Counted from the first letter of the stretch, positions 5,490 to 45,315 are shown. The stretch: DNA of 64,000 nt from Euglena gracilis (GCA_039621445.1 CP154954.1:34829703-34893702); one strand, 5' to 3'. Notes: generated by a model not told the origin, from the sequence alone. Numbers and translations are program-made.

Positions 5490-6075
5490 TCTCACAACCG
5501 ATGTTTTGTTCATTTGCGCAAATAAACAAACTTTGTTTGTGTGCGTTAAGGCTCGCTGAAACACATCACTTTGAAGCGGTTTATTAAATGTTTATTTGCG
5601 CATTTGCACAAATGCGCGCACAAACGTAATTGTGTTTATTTGCGCAATTGCGCGCACCAACACGCCCGTCACGTTTTAAAACCTCGTAGTGTCATGGTCC
5701 TCTTTGGTGTCTTTTAACATGGAAAATAAAAATACATGTTTATTTGCGCATTTGCGCAAATAAACATAATTTTATTTGTGCGCGCATTTGCGCAAATGCG
5801 CCCGCAAAAAAATTTGTTTATGGGCGCATTTGCGCAAATAAAACACAAAACATTGAAAATAAAAATACATGTTTATTTGCGCATTTGCGCAAATAAACAT
5901 AATTTTATTTGTGCGCGCATTTACGCAAATGCGCCCGCAAATAAAATTTGTTTATGGGCGCATTTGCGCCCACAAACATGTATTTTTATTTTCAATGTTT
6001 TGCGTTTTATTTGCGCAAATGCGCCCATAAACATATTTTTTTTATTTGCGCAATTGCGCCCACAAACACACATCA
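5490..6075. repeat. ATTTGCGCAAAT-rich palindromic/tandem repeat cluster
   Basis: Repeated AAAATAAAAATACATGTTTATTTGCGCATTTGCGCAAATAAACATAATTTT units (~5724, ~5856) and an inverted copy near 5975-6040. Confidence 0.7.
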
Positions 6076-8405: not shown

Positions 8406-9083
8406 CACACTCCCGTTGGATTTTTTGACTTTGTGCTGCAGCACCGGCTGCGCGTGCAATCATTTCTCAATCAACTGTGGATCTGCACCTGTCTCTTTGG
8501 CCCAGAAAACTTTGCTGCATTTGCCGCATTTGGGGTTTTGCTTATGCTGGCGTTTGAATCAGCCACCTTCCAATGTTTCCCTAACTGCCTGATTTGGGGG
8601 GGGGGTTGACGCAAACCCACTGAAAACATCAATAAAATGGCAACAAGACTGGAAACTGTGGAACAAATGAAAAGAAAAATTTTTTTGGTCTTCCCCAACA
8701 ATGCTGTCTTCCTCCGAAGGGAAAGAGGAGGGCCCGGCGCGCTCCGGCGACAACAGGCATTTCGCAGCAACGCCTGGCTCAGCGCGCCAAAATCGACAAA
8801 GAAAACCGCCGGCGGACAAGGCTATGGCCGCACAAGGGCAGAGTGTGGAGCCCGAGGTTTCCGGTATCACCAAATTCGGCACTGAGCAGGGACTCCTAAC
8901 CGAGCGCGAAAATACAACGCAGACAGACAACACTGCCGGCGAACGACGCATGGCATCACAGCGGCAAGGTTTGGACCTCAAGGTGTCGCTGCTCTTTTTT
9001 AGGACCATAGTCCTTTTGCGACAGCCCGTCGCTTGGGACATAAGACTCTGGCAGCCACCCATTCCACTCTACAGACAAAATGG

Positions 9084-9210
9084 CACCTCGGGCTCCGCAT
9101 TTTGCCATTGTGAGGCCATGCCTTGCTCGCCGGCGGTTTGTTGTGCGATTGGTCGCTGCGCTGGGTTAGGAGGTCCCGCTTAGTGCCTTTTTTCGCCGGA
9201 GTTGGCTGAT
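9084..9210 (+). repeat. DIRS left inverted terminal repeat
   Basis: CACCTCGGGCTCCGCATTTTGCCATTGTGAGGCCA matches the ICR half at ~33096-33130; the rest matches 32787-32887. Confidence 0.8.
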
Positions 9211-9373
9211 TCCTAAATTGCCCTTCGACACCCAGAAGAAAGGAAAAGAGTTCACGAACGAAGAAGAACCAAGAAAAGAAGCCAATATCAATTCAATATA
9301 CAGAAGGACACGAACCAGACGAATATCAAATCAAAAGTCAATTATCAAATTTCGAATTTGACTTCAATGAACA

Positions 9374-10110
9374 ATGCAGTTGAGAAGAAATTGGAATTTC
9401 ACGGCCGCGGACGTCGTGGTGCAGATGCCGCAGCAGCTGGTGAACTTGGAGATGCGGTCATCACGTGGCAAACCGTGGCCGTTCTTCCCACCCAGCCCCC
9501 CACCCCAGAAATTTCCCAGCCCAAAACCCCCCCCCAGTGACGGCCACGGTCCTTGGACCACAGTGGCCAGAAGGCCCAGAAGACAGAAGCCAGCACCAGC
9601 CCTTTGTGGGCAAAGAATGGGCCATGGGGGCCCAAAATGCTTCAAATGCAAAATGCTTGGCCAATCAAAGCCCACACATCAGGGGCATCTCCCCCAAAGG
9701 CGCCCAGCAGCCTGGGCACAAATTGGTCAGAAGATGGGGAGATGGAATCAAGGCCAAGGAGGTCAACACCACAGGGGCCATGGGGGCCAGTTTTTCAAGC
9801 AAATCCCCTCAGGAAGGGGCAGAAAAGGTCTGTCCAACCCCCCCAATTCATCTATCACAACAGCCCCTCTCAAGGGGACAAGGGGGGGCCACAGCAGCCC
9901 CCCCAGATTTCCAATGGGGTTGGAGGCCAAGAAGAAATCAAGGCCTGGAAGACCCCAAGATGGATTATGGAAAAAAATTTATACATGGAAACCTTGGAGA
10001 CCAGCAGGGTGGACCCACAGTGGCCACCAAGAAGCTAAAGCACCGGCAGGGTGGACCCACAGTGGCCACCAAGAAGCTAAGGCAGCTGCTGGAGAAATCC
10101 CCCGAGGGAC
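9374..10110 (+). pseudogene. gag: DIRS gag-like ORF, cut by the TRIM insertion
   Basis: Pro-rich region, degenerate knuckle CFKCKMLG; GGACCCACAGTGGCC repeats continue after the insertion at 19831. Confidence 0.55.
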
Positions 10111-10443
10111 TGTATACGTTGGTCGTCACCACCCGCCGTTGGACGGCCACAGGGCAGCTCATACTGCTTGCCGTGGCACGCCCTCAGGCGGGGAACTACA
10201 CCCAAGGTCCGGCCAACCAGTGTCTCGTCCTTGGGCGCAGTTACACGCGCCGGTCGATCCCCGCGGTATGCCCTCTGCCCGTACGGGATCGACCAGGACT
10301 CACACGGCGGGACCTGGGTCTCGAACCCACGACCTCCCGCGTGTGAGCCCAGCACCTTACCGAATAAGCTACTCGAGCGATACTCGGCTTGGTACTACGC
10401 GCCGGCTACCAACCTCCGTAGGATCTCCCGTCTGCCGCACACA
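10111..10443 (-). repeat. TRIM 3' LTR
   Basis: Direct repeat of 19498-19830; two substitutions seen (TTGGGC vs TTATGC). Confidence 0.93.
10305..10378 (-). pseudogene. tRNA-derived segment (Val-CAC-like) with Pol III A/B boxes inside the TRIM LTR
   Basis: Minus strand GCTCGAG-TAGCTTATTCGGTAAGG-TGCTGGG-CTCACAC-GCGGG-AGGTC-GTGGGTTCGAGACCCAG: A box, CT-CAC-A loop, AGGTC variable loop, T arm/B box. Acceptor and anticodon stems are degenerate. Confidence 0.75.
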
Positions 10444-10781
10444 CTCCCCTCCCAAGAGCCTTACTACACAAGCCCACTGCGTCACTATGGCCGTGGCCCC
10501 TGCAGCTCGGGTTATGCCTCACACGGCCCTAGTTGACTGAGTGCCTCTCACGAGTACTGCGTCACCAGGCTGCCGACCCCTGCAGCTCGGGTTTGCTATT
10601 GCCGGCAGTTTACGTGTTGTCGACTTCCACGGGCTCTGCCGCCTTGGAGCGTCCCCCTTGGCATCGGCTTGAGACTTTGGAACGGTGTAGGAGTTTCAGT
10701 CGCCCTAGACTCGGCGCGTCCGCCTCCGCCTTCCGGGCGCCGTGGGGTCAGGCTCTGATTTCCCGGTTCGTGTGACATTAG

Positions 10782-11099
10782 AGTGTACGTCTGATTCCCA
10801 ATTCCCCTTTCCCAATTCCCAAAAGCCTTCGCTTTCGCCTTGGCGCACCTACTTGGGAACTGAAAATCAGAGTAACAGTAAAAACCCTTTTCCCACTTCC
10901 CAAGAAGCAAAGCACGGAGCAATGCAGGGAGGACGGACTGGATAACCAAGTCCGGTCCGGAGAAAAGGAAAGACAAACAGAATATAAAAGAATACCACCT
11001 GTGGAGAGAGAAGGGGCACCCATTAGGAGATCCTAATAGGATCTGCTTCCATCCTAACTTCCTCAACGGAAGGGGACAGAAGCATACGCCTGGTACACA
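10782..11099 (-). repeat. Family C 3' LTR
   Basis: Matches 19155-19472 (two substitutions seen) and 45316-45631 (more diverged). Confidence 0.92.
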
Positions 11100-11922
11100 T
11101 CCCCCTCCCAGGGCTATGCCCGATTTCCCCTTTGGACCAGGCATTCTGGCCACAGGGATTTCGGACACAGACCTGGTCTGTGGGAGGTGCACCCTGGCGC
11201 ATCCACAGGGGCCCTTTCCGTCGCACAGGGGTCCACTCAAAGGGGGGGGGCGGAAAGGGGGCGGACCCAAAAAGCCCAAAACGCGCAAAATGGTTTCACC
11301 TATTTTGCGGTGGCTTATGGGTGTATAGTATATTATAGCCCACTGGGGAAAATGGGGCTGGCAGGTTTCCTTGCCAAGCAAACCCATCCACCCAGTTTGG
11401 GTGTGCCAAAGGCACTTGGGGTTGGTCCATGGGCATTCCAGGAAAACCCATGGGGAGGGTGTGGAAGGAGGGGGCCTCTGACCAGTCAAACCTGGGCAGG
11501 GCGCATGGCCAGTCAAACCTGACCACGCAAAAGGAAATCCTACTCTACAAAACCAACTGCCGGCGACAGCATTTGCCCCGGGGGGAAAGTAGAGAGGAGT
11601 GGGGGGTTGTCTTAGGCCAGAAAAATGGTGCTGTCTGGCAGCCTTAAGGCCTCAAACGGCCGAAAATAAAAGAAAGGGAAAGGAAAAGAGGCCGTCGGCC
11701 CTGTGCGCTGCGTGTCGCACGCCCGCGAGAGGGGAGAGGCGAGAGGGGTGTGCATGCATGCGCACGGAATCCTGCACATGGCAGCATCCCGGTGGGAACT
11801 TACTAGCGGCGAATACCGCAAAGAGTCTTCGAAGGGGCTGTTCGGGCGAATACCCAAACAGGGTGTCAGGCGAATACCTGACGAGGGTCCTGAAAGGCGC
11901 CGCATTGGCGCTGACAGACACC

Positions 11923-13797
11923 TCACCTGCCTTTATCGGCTGGACGTTCGCGGACCTCACGCCAGTAGTCGTGTTGGGGATCCCCTAATGGGTCCTCAAC
12001 CAACTCCAGTTGGCGTGGGGAACGCGGCGGAGCTGATTCACTCCGGATGGTGTTGAGCTCCGGATCGTTGACATCAAAGGAAGGGGTCTCCCAGTCCTTG
12101 ATCCAGTTATCCGGCAGCTTCTCCCTGGTACGTTCAGCATGATGCTGAAGATACCGTTGGAGCTGCTCCCTGAAAATTCTGGGCAGCATCACCGGCCAGA
12201 TGATGTAATTCATCCGGGGGTGATTCGCAGGCACCTGCGGGGGCATCCCCGGGGTCTGCTTGAAGTTGATGTCATACATCCACCTCGCTGTCCGAGCTCT
12301 TGCGGTATGGGGCCGTAATACAGCCGCCAACCAACCTCTGAAGTCCACCGAATCATGTTCTTCAGGAGGCCACAGTGGCAAGGCGTATCCGCCATGCTGA
12401 CGCTTGGAGAACAGGGGGTAAACCTGTGTCTCCCAGTCGCCATCAGTCCAGAGGTAAGGCATTCTTACCTTGGCGTGTTCCTCGACGGCGAGGCGCATTG
12501 CCCCAGCGTCGATCTGGAACTCACGGGCCATTCCCGTGTGGCGGTAGCTTTCTACCTTTCGGAAGTCGGAGTGCTTCAGGCGGCCTTCCACCTGCTTGTA
12601 CTCCTTCTTCCACTTCTCCAGTGTCTCCCAGTGCTGGGGGACAATGGTGGTGACTGCTCCATCAGCAGTCTGCACGAACTTGCCTCCTATACAGTTGATG
12701 CACAAGGCAGGGATATCCCTGTCGTGAGCATTCTCACTGTAGGAGTAGTTCAAGCTGTGCTTCCATGCATTCAGGCGCTCGCCACATACGAGCGCCACAC
12801 AGTTCGGCACATATGCCCTGTGATGGAACCACGAGGATTGCACCTGCCGCTTGCACACATGCACAAGCGGTTGGTTATGCCGCACATGGTGGCATACGGT
12901 GCACGTCCAGGCAAAGGACGTGCCGTGCTGGAAATCCAACACGCAGTCCTCGCCAAAGTACTGTGCCAGTACTCTGGGTGAGCGCCTGTTCCAGAATGTT
13001 CAGGTATGTTCCGGGACATAGTGGAAAGGTTCTCCGCGGACGAAGAGGGGCTGAATCCATCGATTCAGGGACCCTGCCTGGTGCCTAATAGCAGCCAGTT
13101 TATTCGTCCTTTCTTCCACGGTGCCTAGTCTGGTCAGGATATCCTGGGTCCAGAGCTGGGCATCCGCAGACACAGGAGGTGAAGCAGGTTCATCCTGCTC
13201 CTCATCCGTCGATCCGGTGGAAGATTGGGCCTGTCGACCACGAGCCTTACCTTTCGGTTTGCTCTGGCCGTACCCGGACGATGCAACGGCCGAATAGTCG
13301 TGCATTGTCGTAGGGCCTTTCGGCTGTCCGCCAGTCTGACCTCCAGCGCCACCTTTCGGTGGTGGTTTCCCATCACCGCCTTTGGAAGGGGGCTTACAGG
13401 GTGCAGCACCCGGTTTGCCTCCTTTCGGCTTCGCACTCCCGGAATCAGGAGGTGACGCCTGCGGCTTACTCCTGGTATCAGGAGCCGATGATGCCGGAGT
13501 AGACGTTTGCCGTCTGGGCGAAGCGGGCATACTGACCGCTGGGTCGCGCATGACGCTCCGAGGGGTCGGCACTCGTTCCTGGGGTTGTTCAGCCGGTCGT
13601 CGCCGAGCAGGTTCATCCTGTCCGACGAGGCGTGGCACTGTGGTCGTCACCGGAATCGGTGCTTCCACAGGCGCTGGCACTCCCAGAAACTCTGCCATTG
13701 CCCTCGGGACGGCAGGGACCCTGCGCGGTGTCGGTGGTCGTGGGGGTATCTCCTCCACTTCCATTTCGACATCCTGTCTAGGAGGTTGATCCTCCAC
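11923..13797 (-). pseudogene. Cargo ORF of unknown function (~620 codons, one in-frame TGA at 13000); low-complexity N-half, Cys/His-rich globular C-half
   Basis: ORFs 13000-13797 and 11923-12942 share a frame; CTVCHH..HVC..C..C..CINC cluster; the C-terminal WIKDWETPS..SESAP segment recurs at 22186-22290. Confidence 0.6.
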
Positions 13798-14350
13798 AAC
13801 CGCTGGCGCAGGTGCTACAGGAGGTTGATCCTCCGCTGTAGCCGGTGCGACAGATGGCTCTGTCGGCTGGGGTTCATCCCCTGCCGGAGATGGGGTTGTG
13901 TGTATAAGTTGGGATGCGCTGTTGTAGCTGCTGGGGGGTGTACAGATGTATCTGAAAGCGATACATCTGGTGGAAAACGGGGTATTAGTGCAGCTGGGCG
14001 ACTACTCGACACCGTTATAACTTCAGGCCTTTGGGCTTTCGTCTTGTAACCCAGTGAAACGAGGGGGGTACCGCTACTCGCTTGCCCTGCCTCATGGGGA
14101 ACGGAAGTTGGTGTGTCAATGGGCAGGGGGTGAACTTTCTCGGTACACCCGGTGTGGGAAACGTTGGTTGGTGTGGTTGGTAACGGGGTAAAAGTTTTCG
14201 AAAACGGTGTGGAAAATTTGGTGGCTATCGCGGTTGACGCCACAGGTGATGAAGGTTTGGGGGGCAATGAGGAGAGCGGTGATGTGCGCAAACCGTGGGA
14301 GTGGCAATCCACTACCAGCCGGTGCTGACGTAAAAAGGGGTATCCCAGAA

Positions 14351-14896
14351 TTACGTCAGAACCATGGATTCCGGATTCATATCCCCAGGTATCCGGAAAA
14401 TTTTGCGGTTGGGGGGGTGTGAGTGGTGCTTGGGGATGAGGGGTAGGACAATGTCCAAAAAGCATCCCAAGTCACCACCGCACATGGGGGTGTTGTCAGC
14501 CGTCGTAATTTTGATCGGCTTCTTGGCTTGCACCAAGAGGGGGGTTGGTATCAACCCGAACCGAAAAAGTAGTGCAATGCGACAACCAGTGTCAATGAGT
14601 ATTTTGACTTTTGCACAAAAATTTTGGATTTTGATTTCCGCTTGGACCAAAAGTTCCATGGGGGGTAAGCAAAGTGAAGGGTCTGGCGAAAATACGTTTT
14701 CTTGCCAGCTTTCCCATGAACCCTTTCCTACTTTGCACAACATTCCGAGCGGAAAGTTGGAGTGGGGGGTGGGGGACCCGAAAATTTTCCGGGTACCGAC
14801 CAGAAAGGCAGATGGGCAGGGGGGACAGGGTTGATCAGGTCCTACCTCCATCTGTTCATCAGCCCAGAGGTCCGTGCCCTCGGACCTCGGGCTCCC
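14351..14896 (-). CDS. pro: Aspartic protease (retropepsin), start of pol; frameshifts near 14430
   Basis: KILIDTGCRIALL catalytic motif, ITTAD flap region; DVILGYPFL in the adjacent frame. Confidence 0.85.
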   Translation of the reverse strand, partial: GSPRSEGTDLWADEQMEVGPDQPCPPCPSAFLVGTRKIFGSPTPHSNFPLGMLCKVGKGSWESWQENVFSPDPSLCLPPMELLVQAEIKIQNFCAKVKILIDTGCRIALLFRFGLIPTPLLVQAKKPIKITTADNTPMCGGDLGCFLDIVLPLIPKHHSHPPNRKIFRIPGDMNPESMVLT

Positions 14897-15706
14897 CTAC
14901 TCCAGGTCCGAACCGGCCGAATAGCCGGCTATGGGCCTTTTAGAGGTATAAACGGATTTCAACGTGCGCACCGCCATGCGGGCCTCGTCGAAATCGGTAT
15001 CCGTGGTCTCATCCCCCTCCCTGCCCGAAGCCGGGGTGTCATCCTCCAAACAAGATATCTTGAAACCGACTTTATGGCGGTTGGAGGAGTGACCCTTGTC
15101 ACCGCGATTCATACCGCGATGACGTTGGCCAGGGCGGGGAGAACGAGAACGCGGACATTTGGATGAGTGGTGATCACTCGATCCACAAAGCGAACACCGA
15201 GATTTGTGTCGCGAATCTGGATAACGGGGGGATCGGTTTCCCGATTTCCCGTCAAACCGTCGTGGTGACCGGGTATCCCGTCGACCATGACCGGTGTATC
15301 GGGGTTTTCCCGATGAGGATCGCGAAGAGGATGATCCGCTTCGCGAACGCGATCGCGATGTCTCGCGATGAGAATCACGCTTCTTGGCCGGGGCACCGGG
15401 TGACCTACCCCGAGGGGTACCGTGTTTCCGCTCATCGCGGAACGGGATCCGGGGGCTAATACCACCGGAACGGGGACCCGATGACCGTGAATTGCCCGAT
15501 TGGCGTGAAAACGCGGAGGAACCCGAACCTCGTGATGAGGTCGAGCCTCGCGGACTCTGAATACGCTTTCGCGCTTCAGGGTTAGGACATTCCCGAGACA
15601 TATGTCCCGATTTGTTGCACAAAAAGCACACTTTATCCGTGGCTTGGTCCGAAGAACGCGGGTATCGCGTTTTCGATCCTGTGGTTGGTGAAGCGGGTGA
15701 AACCGG
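14897..15706 (-). CDS. gag: Gag nucleocapsid region: two CCHC zinc knuckles around an RS-rich tract
   Basis: CFLCNKSGHMSREC and CSLCGSSDHHSSKC; in frame with the upstream gag across the TGA at 15707. Confidence 0.85.
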   Translation of the reverse strand, partial: PVSPASPTTGSKTRYPRSSDQATDKVCFLCNKSGHMSRECPNPEARKRIQSPRGSTSSRGSGSSAFSRQSGNSRSSGPRSGGISPRIPFRDERKHGTPRGRSPGAPAKKRDSHRETSRSRSRSGSSSSRSSSGKPRYTGHGRRDTRSPRRFDGKSGNRSPRYPDSRHKSRCSLCGSSDHHSSKCPRSRSPRPGQRHRGMNRGDKGHSSNRHKVGFKISCLEDDTPASGREGDETTDTDFDEARMAVRTLKSVYTSKRPIAGYSAGSDLE

Positions 15707-18700
15707 TCATTTTTGCAATGCGTTCACCGAACCAGCCGGTAATCCAGCGGTTGGGTGTGCGGTATACGTGGATTGAATCTGACCAAGAAGCTGTGATAGC
15801 TTCAGTTGCTTGGAAACATAATTCCAGCGTTGGTCAAGTGTCATTGCATTACCTGCCAACTCCTCACGATGGATATCCTTGATGAGGCTAGGCGTGAAAT
15901 GCATGAGAACAGCGTCAAACTGTTCGCGCATTTGCCTTTCACTGAGTTCATCCACTTCAGCGGCAAGTCCTAACCATTTGGCATACCAAAGGTCAATGGA
16001 CTTCCACTTGCGGTCGGGTGGGGCGCATTGCCGCCACTTGGTCTCCAGGGTAATCCTAGCGACCAAACTTGAACTGGTGGAAGCGTATTGCTCCACCGGG
16101 TCATCAAAGGAAACGCGGTAGCGAATGACGAGTTGTCGCGCGTGCTCCTTCTCATCCCTAGGGAGGCAATCGATGAATTCCATCTTGATCACCTCCGGGT
16201 TTGTGTCCTGGGTTGGCCCTTTCAATGCCCAGTAGTACTCCCAGTCCCGGAAAAACTGTCTCCATGTGGTTGGATCGCCGTCCCATTGGGGTTTCACCTT
16301 ATTCGCGATTGCGATGGTGCCCTTGAAGTCTTTCTGAAAAACCCGTTGGCCCTCGGTGGTATTCCGTGGATTCGGGCCCGGGTACGCTCGAGCACCAAGC
16401 GTATCCTTTCCGGATTCTTGTCGGAATTGCGAAATTTCTGGTGAAGGTGAATCCTGGTACCGGAAATCCGGTCGCAAACCCTGTTGGTCACCCGTAATAG
16501 GGGGACACTCCGATGTGGGGGTATGTCGCGCATGCAACATGTGACCCACTCCCGGTGTACGGGTTTGGCTCATTCCACTAAAAAGCATGGAATGATGGAT
16601 TTCTTGGTGGAGACTTGGCGGAATCGCCGTGTTTTCCGCGAATTCGGTTCCCGTAATGGGAGATTCATCCGAAAACTGGTTTTGAGTTGTGGGCAAGGCC
16701 AATGGTGGCACAATTCGTGGAATCGCGGATTGTGACACTCGGGACACGGGTGGTGGTGGTGCATGTGCACCCAGATTCGGGTTGTGGAAACGCGAATCTG
16801 GAGCATTTGGCGCATCTTCGGCAATGCATACTGCCGAATTGCGGTGTGAAACCCGCTGTTGGTTGGACATATTATCCAAACCCACAGACAAGTCATGCAC
16901 ACTTTGCTCCAAATGCTCAACGAGTTGGAGTTGGCCGCAAATACGGTCAACTTCATCCTCCAAAGCGCGAATACGCTTGCGGTAACGGGAAAAGTCATCC
17001 AAGTGCAGAATCCTTTCGGAAATTCCGGTAACATCTTGGACAAGTTTCCCGTGAGACTTATCCAATAATTGGAGTTGTCCCATTAATGCTTTTACAGCAT
17101 TTGAGAGAATCTGCAAAGGTGATGTCACCTTGGTTGGTGTGGTGGTGGGTGCAACCGGTGTAGGGTTATCCGACAACACGGTTGTGGTACCCATGGGCAA
17201 ATTTCCAGGTTGTGGGTTATCCAACAACGCGGAAATTCGCTCATCCAACCTGGTAATCTCACCTTGCGTGGATCGGGCATTCCGATTCACCGATTCGTCA
17301 AGCCGTAATAGGCTGTTGCAGAAATCTTGCAAGGTTTCCTGATTGTTAGTGAGCATTTTGTCATAAAATGCCTTGAAATCAGGGTTCTCGGTAATCCGAG
17401 ATCTGGAACCTGCAGGCAAAGACTGCATTTCCGTTATTTTGGTAGACACCGATGCATACCGGGTCTGGAGTTCTCCAATAGCAGCCTGAATACCGCTAAT
17501 GTCCTGAACTCGGTGGGAAAGTGCGGAATAGCTTTGTTGCAAACCCTCAATGGCCGAGTTAATCCCGCCAATGTCGGATTGCAACTGCAACTGCAGGGAA
17601 TCCTGCCGTTGTGCCATTTCCGCCACTTTCGCGCTCAGATTGGATAATCCAACCCGATTCGCGTCACAATAGCAGGTTTTCTGCTCCAAACGGGAAAGTC
17701 GCTCCTCCAACTGCCGCACATACGTGTGGGGAGCAAAATTCTCGTTGGCTTGTGACTGGAATTGCCGAAACTTTTCCGTTTCATCGCACAACTGCATAAT
17801 GCGGTGTTGCGATTCATGGAAAGTTGCGGACAATGTGGTGAAATGGTCCATAGACACAAATCCACCACTGCTGGATGTTGCAGACGAGGAATCTCGTGCA
17901 TGCAACTGTTGTTGCAAATGCAACAACGCAGATGAACAGGACTCCATTTGTCCCGATAACTGTTGTAGTGAGCCATGCAAGTGCAGAAACTTGGAGTCAT
18001 TCCGCGTTTCCGCTTCATGCATGCATTCACTAATTTGCCGGAAGTTTTGCGGGAGCTGTTGGCATATTCTGTCAAAGGTTTCCCGAAAGTTTGCAAGGTC
18101 AATACCCGCACTTTCGAAATTCCTCTGGCAATATCTGCCAACTTCCTGCAAGTAATTCCAGCAGTGTTCCAGCTTGGTTAAGACATGTTTCTGGTTGTCC
18201 TCATCAAACTGAAGCACTTTGTTCAATGCGGTTGCACACTCTGCAACGCATTGTTGCACATGGTTGAACTGCCTCACAAGGGGGTGATCCCCTGGAAGCC
18301 GAGCAACAATATCCTGCACATCCTCAGCAGTGAGGAGCTCACCAGTGCCCTTCCCATAGTCATCCATGGGTTGGGATGTACCGGAGAATTCCGGCACCAC
18401 GAGGCGAGTCTCCGGTTGCCAAGGTAGTACGGGATAGCACCCGATATCGGGGGGTGGTGGCAAAGCTCTGTAAGGGCTTGCCGGTGGAAGAACGGGTGGT
18501 GGTTGAAAGAAACACGGGGTTTCCAGTCCACCATCACCAGAGAAGCCCGGTGGCGGAATCACCACGGGTCTCTCCGGTGTGCGCAGCTGCACCATTGCCG
18601 CAGACAGAGGCGAATACCCTCGTTGTGGCAAGGTGAGTGCGGAAGAGGCCGCATTAGCCTCTGAAGCCAATGATGTGGAGGGCTCATCGCCGACCACTGT

Positions 18701-18874
18701 CAATGATGACAAATGTTGCAATCTTGACAATTGAACCAATTGTGCCTCATCGGCGTGGGAACTGGAAGCACTTTCACATAAAAGCTTCCAATCCCCATTT
18801 TCTTGGTCAATGTCTTGCAATGATGCCTGTAATAAGGCATAATTGAATTGATGGTTGGGGCCTGTGCTTTGCAT
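15707..18874 (-). CDS. gag: Large Gag-like protein (coiled-coil region plus capsid-like C-terminus)
   Basis: >1000 uninterrupted codons downstream of the PBS; PQWDGDPTTWRQFFRDWE capsid-type motif. Confidence 0.8.
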   Translation of the reverse strand: MQSTGPNHQFNYALLQASLQDIDQENGDWKLLCESASSSHADEAQLVQLSRLQHLSSLTVVGDEPSTSLASEANAASSALTLPQRGYSPLSAAMVQLRTPERPVVIPPPGFSGDGGLETPCFFQPPPVLPPASPYRALPPPPDIGCYPVLPWQPETRLVVPEFSGTSQPMDDYGKGTGELLTAEDVQDIVARLPGDHPLVRQFNHVQQCVAECATALNKVLQFDEDNQKHVLTKLEHCWNYLQEVGRYCQRNFESAGIDLANFRETFDRICQQLPQNFRQISECMHEAETRNDSKFLHLHGSLQQLSGQMESCSSALLHLQQQLHARDSSSATSSSGGFVSMDHFTTLSATFHESQHRIMQLCDETEKFRQFQSQANENFAPHTYVRQLEERLSRLEQKTCYCDANRVGLSNLSAKVAEMAQRQDSLQLQLQSDIGGINSAIEGLQQSYSALSHRVQDISGIQAAIGELQTRYASVSTKITEMQSLPAGSRSRITENPDFKAFYDKMLTNNQETLQDFCNSLLRLDESVNRNARSTQGEITRLDERISALLDNPQPGNLPMGTTTVLSDNPTPVAPTTTPTKVTSPLQILSNAVKALMGQLQLLDKSHGKLVQDVTGISERILHLDDFSRYRKRIRALEDEVDRICGQLQLVEHLEQSVHDLSVGLDNMSNQQRVSHRNSAVCIAEDAPNAPDSRFHNPNLGAHAPPPPVSRVSQSAIPRIVPPLALPTTQNQFSDESPITGTEFAENTAIPPSLHQEIHHSMLFSGMSQTRTPGVGHMLHARHTPTSECPPITGDQQGLRPDFRYQDSPSPEISQFRQESGKDTLGARAYPGPNPRNTTEGQRVFQKDFKGTIAIANKVKPQWDGDPTTWRQFFRDWEYYWALKGPTQDTNPEVIKMEFIDCLPRDEKEHARQLVIRYRVSFDDPVEQYASTSSSLVARITLETKWRQCAPPDRKWKSIDLWYAKWLGLAAEVDELSERQMREQFDAVLMHFTPSLIKDIHREELAGNAMTLDQRWNYVSKQLKLSQLLGQIQSTYTAHPTAGLPAGSVNALQK

Positions 18875-19154
18875 TTTTCTGGTGACAAAAGCAGCAAAAA
18901 CCCACAAAACTAAGCAGTTGTGCTGGCACCAGAGGGGCTGTAACGGGTAATACCGTACAGAACCTTCCGGAGCTTGCTCGTCTGCTTAGACGTTGACTAG
19001 AAGCCGGGAGCTGACGCTGCGACCGTGTAATAACGGTGCAGGGGCTCTCCGCTGCCAGTCAGCGTAGGATCGAACCAATCTGCTACCAAGTGTAAAACCT
19101 GGTAGCCTTTCTTTCTGTGAAGTATGTGTAGGATCGTAACCAAATCTGCTACCA

Positions 19155-19472
19155 AGTGTACATCTGATTCCCAATTCCCCTTTCCCAATTCCCAAAAGCC
19201 TTCGCTTTCGCCTTGGCGCACCTACTTGGGAACTGAAAATCAGAGTAACAGTGAAAACCCTTTTCCCACTTCCCAAGAAGCAAAGCACGGAGCAATGCAG
19301 GGAGGACGGACTGGATAACCAAGTCCGGTCCGGAGAAAAGGAAAGACAAACAGAATATAAAAGAATACCACCTGTGGAGAGAGAAGGGGCACCCATTAGG
19401 AGATCCTAATAGGATCTGCTTCCATCCTAACTTCCTCAACGGAAGGGGACAGAAGCATACGCCTGGTACACA
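19155..19472 (-). repeat. Family C 5' LTR
   Basis: TGTGTAC...GTACACT termini, directly followed by the PBS. Confidence 0.92.
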
Positions 19473-19497
19473 ATTAGACGGGTTCCCTCTGCTACCA

Positions 19498-19830
19498 TGT
19501 ATACGTTGGTCGTCACCACCCGCCGTTGGACGGCCACAGGGCAGCTCATACTGCTTGCCGTGGCACGCCCTCAGGCGGGGAACTACACCCAAGGTCCGGC
19601 CAACCAGTGTCTCGTCCTTATGCGCAGTTACACGCGCCGGTCGATCCCCGCGGTATGCCCTCTGCCCGTACGGGATCGACCAGGACTCACACGGCGGGAC
19701 CTGGGTCTCGAACCCACGACCTCCCGCGTGTGAGCCCAGCACCTTACCGAATAAGCTACTCGAGCGATACTCGGCTTGGTACTACGCGCCGGCTACCAAC
19801 CTCCGTAGGATCTCCCGTCTGCCGCACACA
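19498..19830 (-). repeat. TRIM 5' LTR (tRNA-like segment at ~19692-19765)
   Basis: Direct repeat of 10111-10443, followed by a Met-i-type PBS. Confidence 0.93.
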
Positions 19831-20419
19831 GGGACCCACAGAGGCACTCTGCCAAAAATGGGGGAAAAAGGGACCCACAGTGGCCCTTTCATTGACCCAG
19901 TTCCAGGAGGAAAAGGGACCCACAGTGGCCCTTATGGAGGGAGGGGCAGGAACCCCTCCAACAATTATTCCTCAATTCCCAATGATTCAATCAAGGGGGG
20001 GACCCACAGAGGCCCCCCTATGGTATGTGAACCAACCACATCAACCTGGAGAAGACCAGATAGACCAAACAGGGGCATCAAGCCCTATGGTATGTCTTCC
20101 AACAACAAGATCATCCAGAGAGGTGAGCAGAGAGGGAGAGAGTGCATGCACATACCCCCAGAAAAAATTTCTTTTTCCAAGGGCCCAAGCCCTAGGGGAC
20201 CTAGGGGTGCAATGTCCAACACCCCCAACCCAGCCCCCCCAGAATCATCTTATCCAGAAAATAAATTCAATTGGGGAAAGAGGGGGAGACACCCCCCTCC
20301 ATCAAAGGTTGCAAAAAAGCCTAAAATGTCCAACACCCCCAGCCCAGCCCCCCCAAAATCATCTGATCCAAGAAATAAATTCCATGGAGGAAAAATGGGG
20401 AGACACCCCCCTCCATCAA

Positions 20420-21830
20420 AGGCTGCAAAACAGCCTAAAATGGTGGACAAAAAATGCCCACCCAACAACATGTCAACTCATCAGGGATGGCATTCAACCC
20501 CCCTGGCTCAGCCCACCAAAATTGTCCACCCACCCAAAACCCAGAGCCAACCTGGACCTGAACCAGGCAGAAAAAATCCTGTTGGATTACGAAAAAACTG
20601 GGTCAATAAAACGAGTTTGGAATTCAGAAACCCAGCATTTAATCCCATGGTTTCTAATTTCGAAACCAGAAGGGGGAACAACCAAATGGAGAATGATCAG
20701 CGACTGCAGAGAACTAAATCAGCAGTTTCAAGTGAAACCTTTCAAGCTGGATCACATCAAGCACATTTTTCCAGTTTTGGAAAAGGGCCACTGGGCAGCC
20801 AGAATAGACCTGAAAGATGCCTATTTTCATATTCCAGTAAGTCCAGGCCTAAGGCCATTTTTAAGGCATCAGGTGGGGGGGCAGACCTGGGAATTCCAGG
20901 CAGGCCGTTTTGGCCTGAATGTAATGCCTCAAATTTTCATGTAAGTCATGAAAACATTCGAAAAGCTGTGGAGGAAAAGGTGCATCCAGGTATTAATTTA
21001 CCTGGACGACATTTTGCTGGTGGCCCCAACACAAATCGTCTTACAAAATCACCTGAACACAGTGGTCAGGGATTTAATCAAATCAGGGTTCAAAATCAAT
21101 GTAAAAAAGTCCACCCAAATCGTAAATCATCTTGGATTTCAACTAAACTTCCAAGAGGGAAAATTACAGGTGCCCCCACAGAAAATAAAAAACAGTAAAA
21201 AAGGAGCTGGTAAAAATGGTGAAAAAAGATTACATGTCAAAAAGGCAATTGGCTGCCATTTTGGGCAAATCAGATGCAATCTCATGGCCCTGCCCTTTCT
21301 AAGGGCCTTTACGGATGCCCTGGCAATTTTTTTAGTGGAAAATTCCACAGCCCCCTGGGACTCAAAAAAACCCCATCTCCCAAAGAATAAAGGACCAATT
21401 AAGAGAAATAAAAAACCTGCTGGACACCTGGGGGGGCAGACCCTTCCCCCAAAGTGCAACCAGAGGGTTGCACTCAGACAGCAGCACCCATGCCTGGGGG
21501 GGGGGCTGGACATTCGAACAGGAAAAATTGTGCAAGAATTTTGGAGGGAAAACTCCATTCTGCACATAAATGTCAAAGAATTAGGTGCAGCAATAAGCAC
21601 AGTTCAAAGCCTCAGCCAGCCAGGGGAAAGTGTGTCCCTATCCGTGGACAATCAAGTAATTTACTATTACTTAACAAAAGGGGGGGGGCAGAAAAGACCC
21701 CTTCAATTCCATGCTAAGACCCTTCTTCAAATGGTGCATGGAACACAACATAAACCTGCAAGTAAAGTGGGTCCCCTCAAAAGAATGCCTGGCAGACCCC
21801 ATAAGCAGGTGGGAAATGGACAGGGGGGAT
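20420..21830 (+). pseudogene. DIRS reverse transcriptase plus RNase H
   Basis: WRMISDCRELN, IDLKDAYFHIPV, FGLN..PQIF, YLDD; RNase H DSS..AWG, HINVKEL, DN, ADPISR; contains stops and frameshifts. Confidence 0.92.
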
Positions 21831-22185
21831 TATTCCCTAGACCCCCAACTTTTTCAATGGCTGAGGCAGCAGTTCAAAAATTACATAAGCCTGAAAACAG
21901 ACCTTTTTGACTCACCCGGCAACAAAAAACTGCCACAACCTGTGGCCAGGTGGCCCCACTGGGAAGCCACAGCAGTGGATGCATTGCAATGTCCACTGGA
22001 CAACATGGGGGGCCTTTATGCAAATCCCCCCTGGTCTGTAATTCAAAAATTTCTCCCCAGATTAAGAAGGATTCCTCAAGCCAAAGTTTTGATGGTTACC
22101 CCATACTGGGATTCAGCCACATGGTGGCGCCAGTTAATAAAAATGAAAGTACCAGGGTCCCCCTGCCTGAAAATCACCACTTACA
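21830..22185 (+). CDS. DIRS Dam-like N6-adenine methyltransferase domain (C-terminus displaced to 34112, minus strand)
   Basis: DLFDSPGNKKL, DAL, LYANPPW, VTPYWDSATWW: the established DIRS1 MT domain. Confidence 0.9.
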
Positions 22186-39730: not shown

Positions 39731-40499
39731 AATGCATTCTATACGCGCATCGCGTATCTGTCGACCTGGTTCGCGGGTTGAAGGGCGGAATTGCAATTCA
39801 GGGATCCGCAAACATCAGTCAAGGGTGTGCCATCCACACTCCCAAGGGGCGTTCCCAAGCGTTTATGGGTCGGATGGGTGCATACCCAGTCCTATCATGC
39901 CAGATGGAGGTGGGGGAGGTTACTTGATGTAGGGTCGCGCATTGTGATCAGCAACCAAGTGTATGTAGGTGAAAAATCGGGATAAATGTTGGTGCTTGGA
40001 CTAAACATCCACAATCGAAATCTGGCTGGGGGAAATTCTCCCTGGAAGGAAGTGTCGGAGTAGTGGTCCTGGTCGCGCATGTTTGTCTCGTGGGGGTGTG
40101 TGTAAAAGCTGGGATGCGCTTTTGTAGCTGCTGGGGGGTGTACAGATGTATCTGAAAGCGGTACATCTGGTGGAAAACGGCGTATTGTTGCAGCTGGGCG
40201 ACTACTCGACACCGTACGTACTTCAGGCCTTTGGGCTGTCGCCTTGTAACCTAGTGGAACGAGGGGGGTGCCGCTACTCATTTGCCCTGCCTCATGGGGA
40301 ACGGAGGTTGGTGTGTCATTGGGCAGGGGGAGAACTTTCTCGGTACACCCAGTTTGGAAAACGTTGGTTGGTGTGGTTGATAACGGGGTAAAATTTTTCG
40401 AAAACGGTGCGGAAAAATTGGTGGTCGTCGTGGTTGACACCACAGGTGATGAAGGTTTTAGGGGCAATGAAGAGAATGGTGATGTGCGCAAACCGTGGG

Positions 40500-43400
40500 A
40501 GTGGCAATCCACTACCAGCCGGTGTTGACGTAAAACGGGAATCCCAGAATGACGTCCGAACCATGCATTCCGGCTTCGTATCCCCAGGTATCCAGAAAAA
40601 TTTGCGGTTGGGAGGGGTGTGAGTGGTGCTTGGGGATGAGGGGTAGGACAATGTCCTAAAAGCATCCTAAGTCACGACCGCACATGAGGGTGTTGTCAGC
40701 CGTCGTAATTTTGATCGGCTTCTTGGCTTTCACGAAGGGGGGGGGGTTGGCATCAACCCGAACCGAAAAAGTAGTGCAATGCGACAACCAGTGTCAATGA
40801 GAATTTTGAATTTTGCACAAAAATTTTGGATTTAGATTTCCGCTTGCACCAAAAGTTTCCATGGAGGGTAAGCAAAGTGAAGGGTCTGGCGAAAATACGG
40901 TTTCTTGCCAACTTTCCCATGAACCGTTTCCTACTTTGCACAACATTCTGAGCGCAAAATTGGAGTGGAGGGTGGGGGACCGACAATTTTCCGGGTACCG
41001 ACCGGAAAGGCAGATGGGCAGGGGGGGGGCAGGGTTGATCAGGTCCTACCTCCATCTTTTCATCAGCCCAGAGGTCCGTGCCCTCGGACCTCGGGCTCCC
41101 CTACTCCAGGTCCGAACCGGCCGAATAGCCGGCTATTGGCGTTTTAGAGGTATAAATGGACTTCAACGTGCGCAACGCCCTGCAGGCCTCGTCGAAATCG
41201 GTATCCGTGGTCTCGTCCCCCATCCTGCCCGAAGCTGGGGTGTCATCGTCCAAACAAGATATCTTGAAACCGACTTTATGGCGGTTGGAGGAGTGACCCT
41301 TGTCACCGCGATTCATACCGCGATGACGTTGGCCAGCGCCGGGAGAATGTAAAATTTGGATGAGTGGTGGTCACTCGATCCACAAAGCGAACACTGAGCT
41401 TTGTGTCGCCATTCCGGGTAACGGGGGATCGGTTTCCTGATTTCCCGTCAAACCGTCGTGGTGAGCGGGCATCACGTCGAACATGACCGGTGTGTCGGGG
41501 TTTTCCGGATGAGGATCGCGAAGAGGATGATCCGCTTCGCGAACCCGATTGCGCTGTCTCGCGATAAGAATCACGGTTCTTGGCCGGGGCACCAGGTGAC
41601 CTACCCCGGGGGGTACCGTGTTTCCGCTCATCGCGGAACGGGATCCGGGGGATAATACCACCGGAACGGGGACCCGATGACCGTGAATTGCCCGATTGGC
41701 GTAAAAATGCGGAAGAACCCAAACCTCGTGATAAGGTCGAGCCTCGCGGACTCTGAATACTCTTTCGGGCATCAGGATTAGGACGTTCCCGAGACATATG
41801 TCGCGCTTTGTTGCACAAAAAGCACACTTTATCCGTGGTTTGGTCCGAAGTTGGCAGATATCGTGTTTTCGATCCTGTGGTGGGTGAAGTGGGTGAAACC
41901 GGTCATTTTTACAATGCGTTCACCGAACCAGCCGGTAATCCAGCGGTTGGGTGTGCGTTATACGCGGCTTCAATTTGACCGAGAAGCTGTGATACCTTCA
42001 ATTGCTTGGAAACGTAGTTCCAGCGTTGGTCAAGAGTCATTGGATGACTTGCCAACTCCTCACGGTGTATATCCTTGATGAGGCTAGGCGTGAAATGTAT
42101 GAGAACAGCATCAAACTGTTCGCGCATTTGCTTTTCACTGAGTTCATCCACCTCGGTGGCAAGTCCTAACCATTTAGCATTCCAAAGGGTAATGGACTTC
42201 CACTTGCGATGGGGAGCGTTGCCGCCACTTTGTCTCTATGGTAATCCTAGCGACCAAAGGTGAACTGGTGTAAGCGTATTGCCCAACCAGGTCATCAAAG
42301 GAAACGCGGTAGCGAATCACAAGTTGTCGCGCGCGCTGCTTATCATCCCTTGGGAGGCAATTGATGAGTCCCATCTTTATCCCCTCCGGGTTTGTGCCTT
42401 AGGTTGGCCCTTTCAATGCCCAGTAGTATTCCCAGTCCCGGAAAAAGTGTCTCCATGTGGTTTGATCACCGTGCCTTTAGGGTTTCACCTTTTCGCGATT
42501 GCGATGGTGCCCTTGAAGTCTTTCGGAGGAACCCATTGACCCTCAGTGGTATTCCGCGGTTTTGGGCCTGGGTCCGCTCGAGAACTAAGCATATCCTTTC
42601 CAGATTTTTGTCGGAATCACGAAATTTCTCGCGAAGGGGAACCCTGGTACCGAAAACGTGGTCGCAAACCCTGTTGGTCACCCGTAATATGGGGACTCTC
42701 GGGTGTAGGGGTATGTCGCGCCTGCAACATGTGGTCCTCTCCTGGTGTACGGGTTTGCTCCTTTCACGCACAAGCATGGAATGGTGAATTTCTTGGTTGA
42801 GACTTGGCGGAATCGCCGTGGTTTCCGAAAATTCGGTTCCCGTAATGGGAACTTCGTCGGAAAACTGGGTTTGGTTTGAGGACAGGGTCAATGGTGGCAC
42901 AATTCGCGGAGTCGCGGGTTGTGACACTCAGGACACGGGTGGTGATGGTGCATGTGCACCCAGATTAGTGTTGTGGAAACACAAATCTGGAGTATTTGGC
43001 GCATCTTCGGCAATGCATACTGCCGAATTGCGGTGTGAAACCCGCTGTTGGTTGGACACATTATCCAACCCCACAGACAAGTCATGCAAACTTTGCTCCA
43101 AATGCTCAACGAGTTGAAGTTGGCCGCAAATACGGTCAACGTCATCCTTCAAAGCGCGAATACGCTTGCGGTAACGCAAAAAACCATCCAAGTGCGGATT
43201 GTTTTCGGGAATTACGGTGACATCTTGGACAAGTTTCCTGTGAGATTAATCCAATAATTGGAGTTGTCCCGTTAATGCTTTTACAGCTTTTGAGAGAATC
43301 TGCAAAGGTGTTTGCCCCTTGGTTGGTGTGGTGTTGGCTGCAACCGGTGCGGGGTTATCCGACAACGCGGTTGTGGTACCCACGGTCAAATTTGCGGGTT

Positions 43401-45040
43401 GTGGGTTATCCAACAACGCAGAAATTCGCTCGTCCAACCTGGTAATCTCACCTTGCGTGGATCGGGCATTCCGATTCACCGATTCCTCAAGCCGTAATAG
43501 GCTGTTGCAGAAACCTTGCAAGGTGTCCTGATTGCCACTGAGCATTTTGTTAAAAAATGCTTTGAAATCAGGGTTCTCGGTAATCCGGGAACTGGAACCT
43601 GCAGGTAAAGACTGCATTTCAGTTACTTTGGTAGATACCGATGCGTACCGGGTCTGGAGTTCCACAATAGCAGCCTGAATACCGCTAATGTCCGGAACCC
43701 GGTGGGAAAGTGCGGAATAGATTTGTTGCAAACTAGCAAATGGCCGAGTTAATCCCGCCAGTGTCGGATCGCAGCTGCAACTGCAGGGAATCCTGCCGTT
43801 GTGCTACTTCCGCGACTTTCGCGTTCAGAGAGGATAATCCAACCTGATTTGTGTCACAAAAGCAGGTTTTCTGCTCCAAACGGGAAAGTCGCTCCTCCAA
43901 CTGCCGCACTGGATAAACTTCTCGTTGGCTTGTGAGTGGATTTGCCGAAACTTTTCTGTTTCATCACACAATTGCGTAATGCGGTGTTGCGATTCATGGA
44001 AAGTTGCGGACAGGGTGGTGAAGTGCTCCATAGACACAAATCCACCAGCACCGGATGTTGCAGACGAGGAATCCCGTGCATGCAACTGTTGTTGAAAGTG
44101 CAACAGCGCGGATGAACAGGACTCCATTTGTCCCAATAACTGTCGTAGTGAGTCATGCAAGTGCAGAAACGTGGTGTCATTCCGCGTTTCCGCTTCGTGC
44201 ATGCATTCACTAATTTGCTGGAAGTTTTGTGGGAGCTGTTGGCACATTTTGTCGAAGGTTCCCCAAAAGTTTTCAAGGTCAATACCCGCACTTTCGAAAT
44301 TCCTCTGACAATATTTGCCAACTTCCTGCAAGTAATTCCAGCAGTATTCCAGCTTGGTGAAGTCATGTTTTGGTTGTACGCATCAAACTGAAGCACTTTG
44401 TTCTGTGCGGTTGCAAAATGTGCAGCGAATTCTTTCACATGGTTGAACTGCCTCACAAGGGGGTGACCCCCTGGAAGCACATCCTCAGCAGTGAGTAGCT
44501 CCCCCGTGCCCTCCACATAACCATCCATGGGTTGGGACATACCGGAGAATTCCGGAACCAATAGGCGTGTCTCCGGCTGCCAACTTAATGCGGGATAGCA
44601 CCCGAGATCGGGTGGTGGTGGCAAAGCTCTGTAAGGGCTTGCTGGTGGAAGAGCGGGTGGTGGTTGAAAAAAATCACGGGGCTTCTAGCCCACCATCACC
44701 AGAGAAGCCCGGTGGCGGAATTACCACCGGTCTGTCCGGTGTGCACAACTGCGCCATTTCCGTATACAGAGGCGAATCCCCCCGTTGTGGCAAGATGAGT
44801 GCGGAGAAGGCCTTATTAGCCTCTGAAGCCAATGATGCGGAGGGCTCATCGCCGACCACTGTCAATGATGACAAGAGCTACAGTTTTGACAATCGAACAA
44901 ATTGTGCCTCATTGGCGTGGGAACTGGAAGCACTTTCACATAAAAGCTTCCAAATCCCCTGTTTCTTGGTCAATGTCTTGAAATGATGCCTGTAATATGG
45001 CATAGTTGAATTAATGCTTGGGGCCAGTGCTTTGCGTCTT
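40500..45040 (-). pseudogene. gag: Decayed gag, NC and protease of copy 2
   Basis: Collinear with 14300-18880, with many frameshifts. Confidence 0.88.
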
Positions 45041-45315
45041 TCTGATACCAAAAACAGCAAAAACCCACAAAACTAATTAATTGTGCTAGCACCAGAGGGG
45101 ATATAACGTGTAGTACCGTACGGAGCCTTCCGGAGCCTGCTCGTCCGCTTAGACGTTGACTAGAAGCCAGGAGCTTACGCTGTGACCGTGCAATAACGGC
45201 GTGGGGGCCCTCCCTGCGAGTCAGCGTAGGATCGAACCAATCTGCCACCAAATGAAATACCTGGTAGCCTTTCTTTCTGTGAAGTATGTGTAGGATCGTA
45301 ACCAATCTGCTACCA

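Follow-up and report, generated by a model that had tools for sequence, protein, structure and literature searches.

Analysis of a 64-kb window (64,000 nucleotides, the whole stretch of DNA examined) revealed a TRIM of 1,024 bp that reads on the minus strand and carries a decayed tRNA-Val(CAC)-like unit in each of its two LTRs. Because a second LTR element is nested in its internal region, the TRIM spans 9.7 kb of the window (10111-19830). Structurally, it is very probably a TRIM with tRNA-like LTRs of the Helenus type. The unit is a candidate for a working Pol III promoter, a role to which we give about an even chance.

The 5' LTR (19498-19830, minus strand) and the 3' LTR (10111-10443, minus strand) are direct repeats of 333 bp that begin with TG and end with CA. 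They are identical at 331 of 333 positions, and the two differences are adjacent (LTR positions 210-211). The TRIM is a young insertion. It is bordered by the target site duplication (TSD) GGGAC, with the left copy at 10106-10110 (junction read and empty-site contigs of the public sequencing run X1) and the right copy at 19831-19835 (junction read). The empty site is seen in X1 contigs that pass from 10110 directly into sequence resembling that from 19836 onward. Immediately after the 5' LTR, within the first 25 nt of the internal region (19473-19497, minus strand; junction read), comes the PBS, TGGTAGCAGAGG..., which may match the 3' end of initiator tRNA-Met. In run contigs this PBS is continuous with the remainder of the internal region, which comprises 333 nt of non-coding sequence (10444-10776, minus strand). 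This part contains the PPT, GGGAGGGGAG (10444-10453, minus strand), which adjoins the 3' LTR. With the nested element subtracted, the internal portion measures 358 bp, and the longest ATG-started ORF of the TRIM encodes 90 aa. The full set of TRIM features (LTR pair, PBS, PPT, TSD, small size, and lack of ORFs) was thereby found. An imperfect repeat of ~38 nt was also noted inside the internal region (10444-10776).

The nested element (10782-19472, minus strand; 8.7 kb) was delimited by direct repeats and the junction read and does not belong to the TRIM. The LTRs of the nested element, again direct repeats, lie at 10782-11099 and 19155-19472 (minus strand), and its insertion duplicated ATTAG (plus strand; 10777-10781 and 19473-19477), alternatively read as CTAAT or TCTAAT. 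It contains gag-like and zf-CCHC ORFs and a weak protease-like match. Its 1,092-aa ORF had no homologue among proteins of 600-1911 aa, and an Atlas search with the nested element returned weak Gag-like leads only. The start of the PBS is common to both elements, and their PPTs and LTR ends are similar. Despite these similarities, the nested element was rejected as the autonomous partner of the TRIM, as RT and IN were searched for in it and neither was found. A neighbouring RT has a relative in EG_transcript_6737 (66% identity). Identifiers of this style occur in 10 papers, and the 8 of these that were listed all deal with Euglena gracilis or euglenozoans, which makes a euglenid host a lead short of proof.

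Each LTR carries the tRNA-Val(CAC)-like unit in sense orientation at LTR positions 66-138, 65 bp from the LTR start. The unit of the 5' LTR (19693-19765, minus strand) has box A at 19747-19758 and box B at 19704-19714. It is identical to the unit of the 3' LTR (10306-10378, minus strand), in which the boxes lie at 10360-10371 and 10317-10327. Box A, TAGCTTATTCGG, occupies tRNA positions 8-19 and box B, GGTTCGAGACC, tRNA positions 52-62. Both boxes are intact, and the anticodon loop reads CUCACAC, with a CAC anticodon. In the covariance alignment, non-standard pairs were flagged in the acceptor and anticodon stems. The first-pass annotation had described a non-coding LTR element of ~1 kb with TSD, PBS, and PPT, and, some 65 bp from the start of each LTR and in the sense of the element, a tRNA-derived unit with a CAC anticodon loop and decayed acceptor and anticodon stems; all of these points are borne out by the boundaries given above, by the anatomy of the unit, and by the comparisons with tRNAs that follow.

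The tRNA derivation of the unit was assessed by several comparisons, and these bear on two further explanations of the resemblance. One is a chance similarity arising in a GC-rich, hairpin-forming LTR. The Rfam tRNA model aligns with the unit over its full length (model positions 1-71). In favor of chance, the 15.8 bits obtained are below the gathering score of 29. The corresponding E on 161 bases is 0.67, and three miRNA families match the same bases with similar E. At the gathering score no Rfam family matched anywhere in the 64-kb window. ARAGORN called no tRNA at the unit with default settings; it reported the LTR only with -ps80 and then as a different fold, tRNA-Pro (agg), a result without discriminating power because the window yields 58 calls at this setting. 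Against chance similarity, an nhmmer profile built from 19 non-Val tRNAs of unrelated contigs found the two units as the only significant matches in the 64 kb (E 7.5e-5 each; next match E 0.8). A 31-base pattern derived from the unit (23 fixed bases) matched 39 viral contigs, with 28 of the 39 matches inside ARAGORN tRNA-Val(cac) genes, which is the Val(cac) signature of the unit; the remaining matches were cut by locus ends (5/39) or had no ARAGORN call (6/39). Compared with the unit, the most similar real tRNA-Val(cac) is identical at 55 of 73 bases and, in a local alignment that starts in the anticodon loop and reaches the T loop, at 31 of 33. Among 200 shuffled versions of the unit, the highest identity with any of 13 Val(cac) genes was 39.4 on average and in no case above 50. 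The two-box pattern with its spacing gave three matches in metagenome_contigs, all inside called tRNA genes and none of them a family copy. An exact 31-mer of the unit had no match in metagenome_contigs or in genome_contigs. Chance similarity is largely refuted and, in our estimate, highly improbable. The other explanation, a working tRNA-Val gene spread through the genome by the TRIM, would fit the anticodon loop, variable loop, and T arm, which are near those of real tRNA-Val(cac) genes, and the available text of Kojima (2024, PMC10886601) allows that a few Helenus families might encode a tRNA. However, the non-standard pairs in the acceptor and anticodon stems, a score 13 bits under the curated Rfam threshold, the missing ARAGORN call, and a minimum-energy fold of the 73 nt that is not a cloverleaf all oppose it. 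This explanation is close to refuted, and we regard it as extremely improbable. As judged by sequence comparison, the unit is a tRNA-derived, decayed tRNA-Val(CAC)-like sequence.

The TRIM is a member of an abundant family, and other copies lack the nested insertion. In contigs of three of four runs (X15, X17, and X19), 10782 is directly connected with the PBS and LTR. In run X1, 4,664 contig pieces were placed on the 1-kb TRIM stretch, and at least half of the sampled words of the element are present in 20 runs from 17 studies. The element thus belongs to a repeated family and is not a single accident. The unit region was covered in all four runs, and an X17 contig of 170 nt matches 10294-10463 without differences; the run contigs speak against a tRNA-like segment private to the present copy. 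Among the 40 variant sites listed, none falls in 10294-10410. Two points weaken the promoter reading here: among the sites listed, X1 has 14 common variant sites in 671 nt, at which density a gap of 117 nt is expected by chance with a probability of ~7%, and in one X1 contig, box A is lost through deletion of 10353-10430. The X19 run, a metatranscriptome, contains the element, but also flanking repeats, and DNA is possible in such libraries, so that its occurrence there does not demonstrate transcription.

Two further observations concern the surroundings of the unit. The summed X1 depth is 2-5 times higher over 10256-10425 than elsewhere in the TRIM, which hints that other repeats may contain this segment too, though summed contig depth cannot rank parts of the element. 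In one X19 contig the unit is shared from 10315 rightwards, and the divergence sets in exactly after the T arm; this contig may stem from a genuine tRNA gene or from a different element that has this head in common.

If the unit is a promoter, the preserved boxes A and B (tRNA positions 8-19 and 52-62) would be recognized by TFIIIC, and Pol III would initiate close to 19766-19772 (minus strand), a few bases before the unit begins, which leaves a U3 of ~60 nt. As the element contains no T-run, the polymerase would read through the whole element and terminate at a T-run in the flank, the first of which lies 134 nt past the 3' LTR in the present copy. Without a terminator inside the LTR, R would have no defined end. 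Packaging of the RNA would follow, then reverse transcription, with a host tRNA as primer at the PBS, and integration that duplicates 5 bp; the enzymes would come from an autonomous LTR element located outside the window. A length of ~1 kb with read-through is long for Pol III, yet within the range of 311-1263 bp published for Helenus (Kojima, 2024, PMC10886601, available text). The statement as a whole, a Helenus-type TRIM whose boxes drive Pol III transcription, with read-through and mobilization in trans, is in our judgment evenly poised between right and wrong.

The main competing explanation holds that the unit is a relic only, namely a tRNA-derived SINE or a tRNA copy that came to lie in an ancestral LTR and was passed on from there, and that Pol II transcribes the TRIM, as it does ordinary TRIMs; in this case, the role of the conserved 5' LTR half would be that of a structured leader RNA (packaging, dimerization, or stability) or of a Pol II control sequence. 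We consider this explanation, both parts taken jointly, plausible at somewhat below even chances. It draws on the fold of LTR positions 44-193 (10251-10400, minus strand), which forms three long hairpins and not a cloverleaf (-84.3 kcal/mol, z -6.3; none of 200 shuffles folded as well). At its tip, a ~14-bp stem formed by the anticodon region and the 3' trailer bears the T arm; a tRNA would have no need of this stem. Since this region folds as hairpins, part of its conservation could serve RNA structure instead of a promoter, and the Rfam matches on the same bases are mostly hairpin families. The element also lacks a Pol III terminator, and the run contigs, which give no starts or strands, leave the use of Pol III so far an inference. 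Against a mere relic, both boxes agree exactly with the consensus positions, whereas decay has affected the acceptor stem, which is dispensable for a promoter; this pattern of broken stem and kept boxes favors the promoter. No TATAWA, AATAAA, or ATTAAA was found in the TRIM, which likewise opposes Pol II transcription, although such TATA-like and poly(A)-signal motifs may not apply in the host. In addition, the boxes have been argued to be functional from their conservation across many Helenus families (Kojima, 2024, PMC10886601, available text). The first-pass annotation had pointed to the lack of a TTTT run between the unit and the PBS. TTTT is indeed absent from the whole TRIM on the element strand, but this absence carries no weight because 51% of mononucleotide shuffles lack TTTT as well.

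TRIMs in which a captured Pol III promoter stands in for the usual Pol II promoter of the LTR make the boundary between SINEs and LTR retrotransposons less sharp, and they can scatter tRNA-like sites, potential TFIIIC binding sites, across the genome. Since elements of this kind have been published before (Cassandra, then Helenus and Ajax), the present copy adds a well-resolved example and not a new principle. What it adds is a very young example with both insertion sites confirmed, and it may extend the host range of the kind to a new eukaryotic lineage. A possible but rather doubtful claim would make this family the first of the Helenus/TRIMp3 kind beyond opisthokonts and plants: a very abundant, recently active family of a euglenid (Euglenozoa), with a tRNA-Val(CAC)-derived promoter placed within long hairpins. 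If this were true, euglenids, being culturable, would offer a practical system for showing Pol III-driven transcription of an LTR retroelement, and it would suggest that the capture of small-RNA promoters by TRIMs recurs across eukaryotic supergroups. For annotation, weak tRNA-like matches in direct repeats of TE-rich protist genomes can be cargo of LTRs and not pseudogenes.

Ajax and the retrozymes resemble the present element in being miniature LTR elements whose LTRs hold a functional RNA module in place of the ordinary Pol II promoter. The modules differ. Retrozymes carry hammerhead ribozymes, and the Rfam scans gave no hammerhead match here. Ajax carries a 5S promoter fragment (Kojima, 2024, PMC10886601, available text), which was not matched in this element either.

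[quoted passage not shown] In contrast to Cassandra, which captured a 5S rRNA gene (type 1), the captured gene here is a tRNA (type 2, boxes A and B). A 5S rRNA-derived sequence was not detected in the LTRs: within 9000-21000 and 10260-10420, 5S_rRNA was not matched by Rfam even with E up to 10, and in the whole window no match reached the gathering score. Cassandra is transcribed from its Pol III promoter, which has been validated experimentally according to the available text of Kojima (2024, PMC10886601), whereas that of the present element is predicted.

With SINE2 elements, the TRIM shares a decayed tRNA head with both boxes preserved, the lack of a terminator of its own, and a dependence on enzymes from another element. 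SINE2 elements have the tRNA head at the 5' end, no LTRs, and a LINE-type or A-rich tail; the head of the present element instead lies 65 bp inside a 333-bp LTR. A head placed within LTRs, together with the PBS, PPT, and 5-bp TSD, means that the element moves as an LTR retrotransposon does and not by LINE-mediated target-primed reverse transcription.

The closest correspondence is with Helenus. The first-pass annotation had implied novelty, which does not hold, since TRIMs with tRNA-like LTR sequences have already been defined as Helenus, class TRIMp3 (Kojima, 2024, PMC10886601). According to the available text of that paper, on which the following comparison is based, 'p3' denotes the captured Pol III promoter, Pol III transcription of Helenus is generally unvalidated, and Helenus is proposed to have originated by insertion of a SINE2 into the LTR of a TRIM. 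The present element agrees with the published description in its short LTR pair, PBS, PPT, TSD, and lack of coding capacity, in its total length (1,024 bp compared to 311-1263 bp), and in an LTR-borne unit that does not resemble a working tRNA and has the boxes TRGCY...YGG and GGTTC, here TAGCT...CGG and GGTTC at tRNA positions 8-19 and 52-56. The 5-bp TSD is as in fungal and plant Helenus, and the Val-CAC type of the unit is as in fish families, aligned to tRNA-Val-CAC according to the legend of Figure 2c. It differs in that its LTR of 333 bp is longer than the longest one reported there (323 bp), and in that a 5-bp TSD is combined with a PBS that putatively matches a tRNA 3' end, whereas animal Helenus have 4-bp TSDs. 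Furthermore, its host is probably a euglenid, while Table 1 of the paper comprises fungi, six animal phyla, and Selaginella only. Placed by the description of published Helenus, the element is a Helenus-type TRIM and a candidate for class TRIMp3.

The miniature LTR retrotransposon (TRIM) is bounded by two 333-bp direct repeats on the minus strand (10111–10443 and 19498–19830), delimited by a repeat scan and sequence reading. The sole mismatches between these LTRs are two adjacent bases at LTR positions 210–211. In minus-strand sense each LTR starts with TG and finishes with CA. Directly 3' of the 5' LTR lies the PBS (TGGTAGCAGAGG...), which opens with the complement of CCA, and a polypurine tract (PPT, GGGAGGGGAG) directly precedes the 3' LTR. 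The target duplication GGGAC is present on both flanks (10106–10110 and 19831–19835). The 9.4-kb gap between the LTRs exists only because a second LTR element sits nested in the internal region. Without this element and one copy of its duplication, the TRIM measures 1,024 bp, with an internal region of 358 bp and no ORF longer than 90 amino acids. The anatomy described in the first-pass annotation (LTRs, PBS, PPT, target duplication, non-coding) was thus confirmed.

Of the words sampled from 10111–10781, half or more occurred in each of 20 public sequencing runs from 17 studies. Four of these runs (X1, X15, X17, and X19) were placed on 9950–10950, all as contigs. The DNA run X1 contributed 4,664 contig pieces, which indicates a high repeat number for both the TRIM family and its neighbours. 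In contigs of X15, X17, and X19, position 10782 was joined straight to the PBS, followed by the LTR; these are TRIM copies lacking the nested element. Furthermore, 29 X1 contigs ran from 10110 into sequence matching 27 of the 30 bases after 19835; these represent sister copies of the host repeat whose TRIM target site is empty. Un-nested copies and empty-site contigs together establish that both insertions are real and their boundaries exact.

The nested element (8.7 kb, 10782–19472, minus strand) has 318-bp LTRs with two differing sites and its own target duplication, CTAAT or TCTAAT. Among its coding sequences are a zinc-knuckle ORF and a 1,092-aa ORF whose only leads, all of them weak, are Gag-like; there is also a weak match to a protease. 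The search turned up neither RT nor RNase H nor integrase, and the element resembles a large non-autonomous one. Its PBS region (19066–19160, minus strand) is doubled, with TGGTAGCAGA at 19079–19088 and 19145–19154, and the PBS complementarity appears to extend over about 25 nt into apparent tRNA T-loop sequence. The same long PBS occurs in sister copies in contigs of other runs. The TRIM and the nested element have the PBS start TGGTAGCAGA in common, and their PPTs and LTR ends are similar; hence, both may rely on the same unseen autonomous element. A second, partial copy of the nested-element family, 86–95% identical to the first, lies at about 40091–45638 (minus strand). Directly adjoining its 5' LTR is a tandem array (45592–48607) of 12–14 copies of an approximately 215-bp unit, 62–91% identical to a reference copy.

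The TRIM lies inserted in a plus-strand element that bears an RT (9371–10110 and 19836–21910). The ORF of this host element (19478–21910) contains a single in-frame stop, located inside the RT domain. Almost all proteins related to it are unnamed metagenome sequences; among those with a name, the best is EukProt EG_transcript_6737, a Euglena gracilis transcript with 66% identity. The host element also contains tandem repeats of 42 bp (10000–10083) and 114 bp (20211–20438). Almost all of the window consists of repeats. The available text of the E. gracilis genome paper reports a 2.37-Gb assembly with 58.84% repeats, and its Table 4 assigns 21.8% of the genome to LTR elements; such a repeat-rich genome fits a high TRIM copy number. 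Elsewhere in the window, AT-rich repeats at 1964–2063, 5716–5815, and 5849–5948 contain the palindrome ATGTTTATTTGCGCA...TGCGCAAATAAACAT and possibly represent the termini of a small DNA transposon. An ORF fragment at 59635–60498 (plus strand) matches an RT-linked RNase H domain (RT_RNaseH_2, E 1.3e-11) and is probably what is left of an autonomous element, Ty3/gypsy-like or related, with no TRIM-type PBS found beside it.

Each TRIM LTR contains a tRNA-like unit at LTR positions 66–138 (10306–10378 and 19693–19765, minus strand), whose alignment covers the full length of the Rfam tRNA model (positions 1–71). This alignment places box A (TAGCTTATTCGG) at tRNA positions 8–19 and box B (GGTTCGAGACC) at positions 52–62. 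The loop of the anticodon arm is CUCACAC, the T arm remains nearly intact, and both the acceptor stem and the anticodon stem contain pairs marked as non-standard. The A box, CAC loop, B box, and decayed stems noted from the sequence alone were therefore recovered. The covariance check proposed at that stage gave a full-model tRNA alignment, but at 15.8 bits, short of the gathering score, 29 (E 0.67 for 161 bases scanned against 4,227 families). Three miRNA families matched the same 161 bases with similar E-values. ARAGORN called no tRNA at the TRIM LTRs under default settings; when relaxed, it reported the LTR with another fold, and not before reaching a setting that produces 58 calls in the window. 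Judged by Rfam and ARAGORN alone, the tRNA identity would fail; three further tests uphold it.

An nhmmer profile was built independently of the unit from 19 distinct ARAGORN-called non-Val tRNAs (Arg, Cys, Gln, Glu, Gly, Lys, Met, Trp) of unrelated phage contigs, with Val and long-arm types left out. The two LTR units were its sole significant matches in 64 kb (E 7.5e-5, profile positions 7–64; next E 0.8). A 31-base pattern from the unit (23 fixed bases, anticodon loop to T loop), whose N positions were chosen with prior knowledge so that the test was not fully blind, matched 39 viral contigs. ARAGORN tRNA-Val(cac) genes enclosed 28 of these matches; five were cut by the locus end and six had no ARAGORN call. 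The closest real tRNA-Val(cac) gene was identical to the unit at 55 of 73 bases, compared to at most 51 of 73 for other isotypes; this gene also matched the unit locally at 31/33 bases, starting in the anticodon loop and reaching into the T loop. For 200 shuffles of the unit against 13 Val(cac) genes, the best identity averaged 39.4 and never exceeded 50. The two boxes and their spacing, taken from the unit alone, matched three metagenome contigs, all inside called tRNA genes. These similarities identify the unit as tRNA-derived, of the Val(CAC) type; it is not a working tRNA. A contig from the leaf-litter metatranscriptome X19 carries the unit to the T-arm end at 10315, followed by 151 unrelated letters, and may represent either an actual tRNA gene or a different repeat sharing this head.

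The first-pass annotation proposed Pol III transcription of the TRIM from a captured tRNA or SINE head. We regard a working Pol III promoter as an even prospect; that the unit is only a relic is a somewhat less likely reading. The boxes lie at canonical positions with motifs reported as conserved in Helenus, TRIMs with tRNA-like LTR sequences (available text of PMC10886601), and the parts dispensable to a promoter have decayed. No TATAWA, AATAAA, or ATTAAA occurs in the TRIM. TTTT is also absent, as had been remarked for the stretch between the unit and the PBS, but the observation carries no weight, as 51% of shuffles lack it likewise, and it leaves the LTR with no terminator. The unit was found in contigs of all four runs, whereas one X1 contig is missing 10353–10430, and box A along with it. 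The 40 variant sites listed all lie outside 10294–10410; however, given the 14 common X1 variant sites listed on 671 nt, such a 117-nt gap would arise by chance in about 7% of cases. Two X15 LTR variants, 26 letters and 4 gaps apart over 10136–10283, both overlap one unit-bearing contig with five differences from the window over 529 nt, which also speaks for a promoter. X19, the sole certain RNA library, covers neighbouring repeats too and is at best neutral.

Part of the conservation around the unit could serve RNA structure. The 73 nt of the unit gave no cloverleaf in RNA fold prediction, and LTR positions 44–193 were predicted to form three long hairpins (-84.3 kcal/mol, z -6.3), a fold equalled by none of 200 shuffles. 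In this prediction, the anticodon region and the 3' trailer form a stem capped by the T arm, and the D-arm region is paired to bases that lie upstream of the unit; hence, the acceptor strands seem replaced rather than merely decayed.

A literature search found no paper joining Euglena with TRIM-type elements, and Table 1 of Kojima 2024 includes no euglenozoan (PMC10886601). In the passages available, later literature naming Helenus alongside 'retrotransposon' merely cites Kojima 2024. The kind of TRIM is not new; its host lineage possibly is. The proposed analogy to Cassandra was right and is already in print as a named class: the available text of PMC10886601 places Cassandra, Helenus, and Ajax together as TRIMp3, with Pol III use validated for Cassandra only. 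It gives Helenus a size range of 311–1263 bp, a longest LTR of 323 bp, and target duplications of 5 bp in fungi and Selaginella and 4 bp in animals. It also aligns fish Helenus families to tRNA-Val-CAC and proposes an origin by insertion of a SINE2 into a TRIM LTR (PMC10886601). Likened to Helenus by this published description, the Euglena TRIM agrees in each structural feature that could be tested, and is a very clean and very young example of an already described kind.
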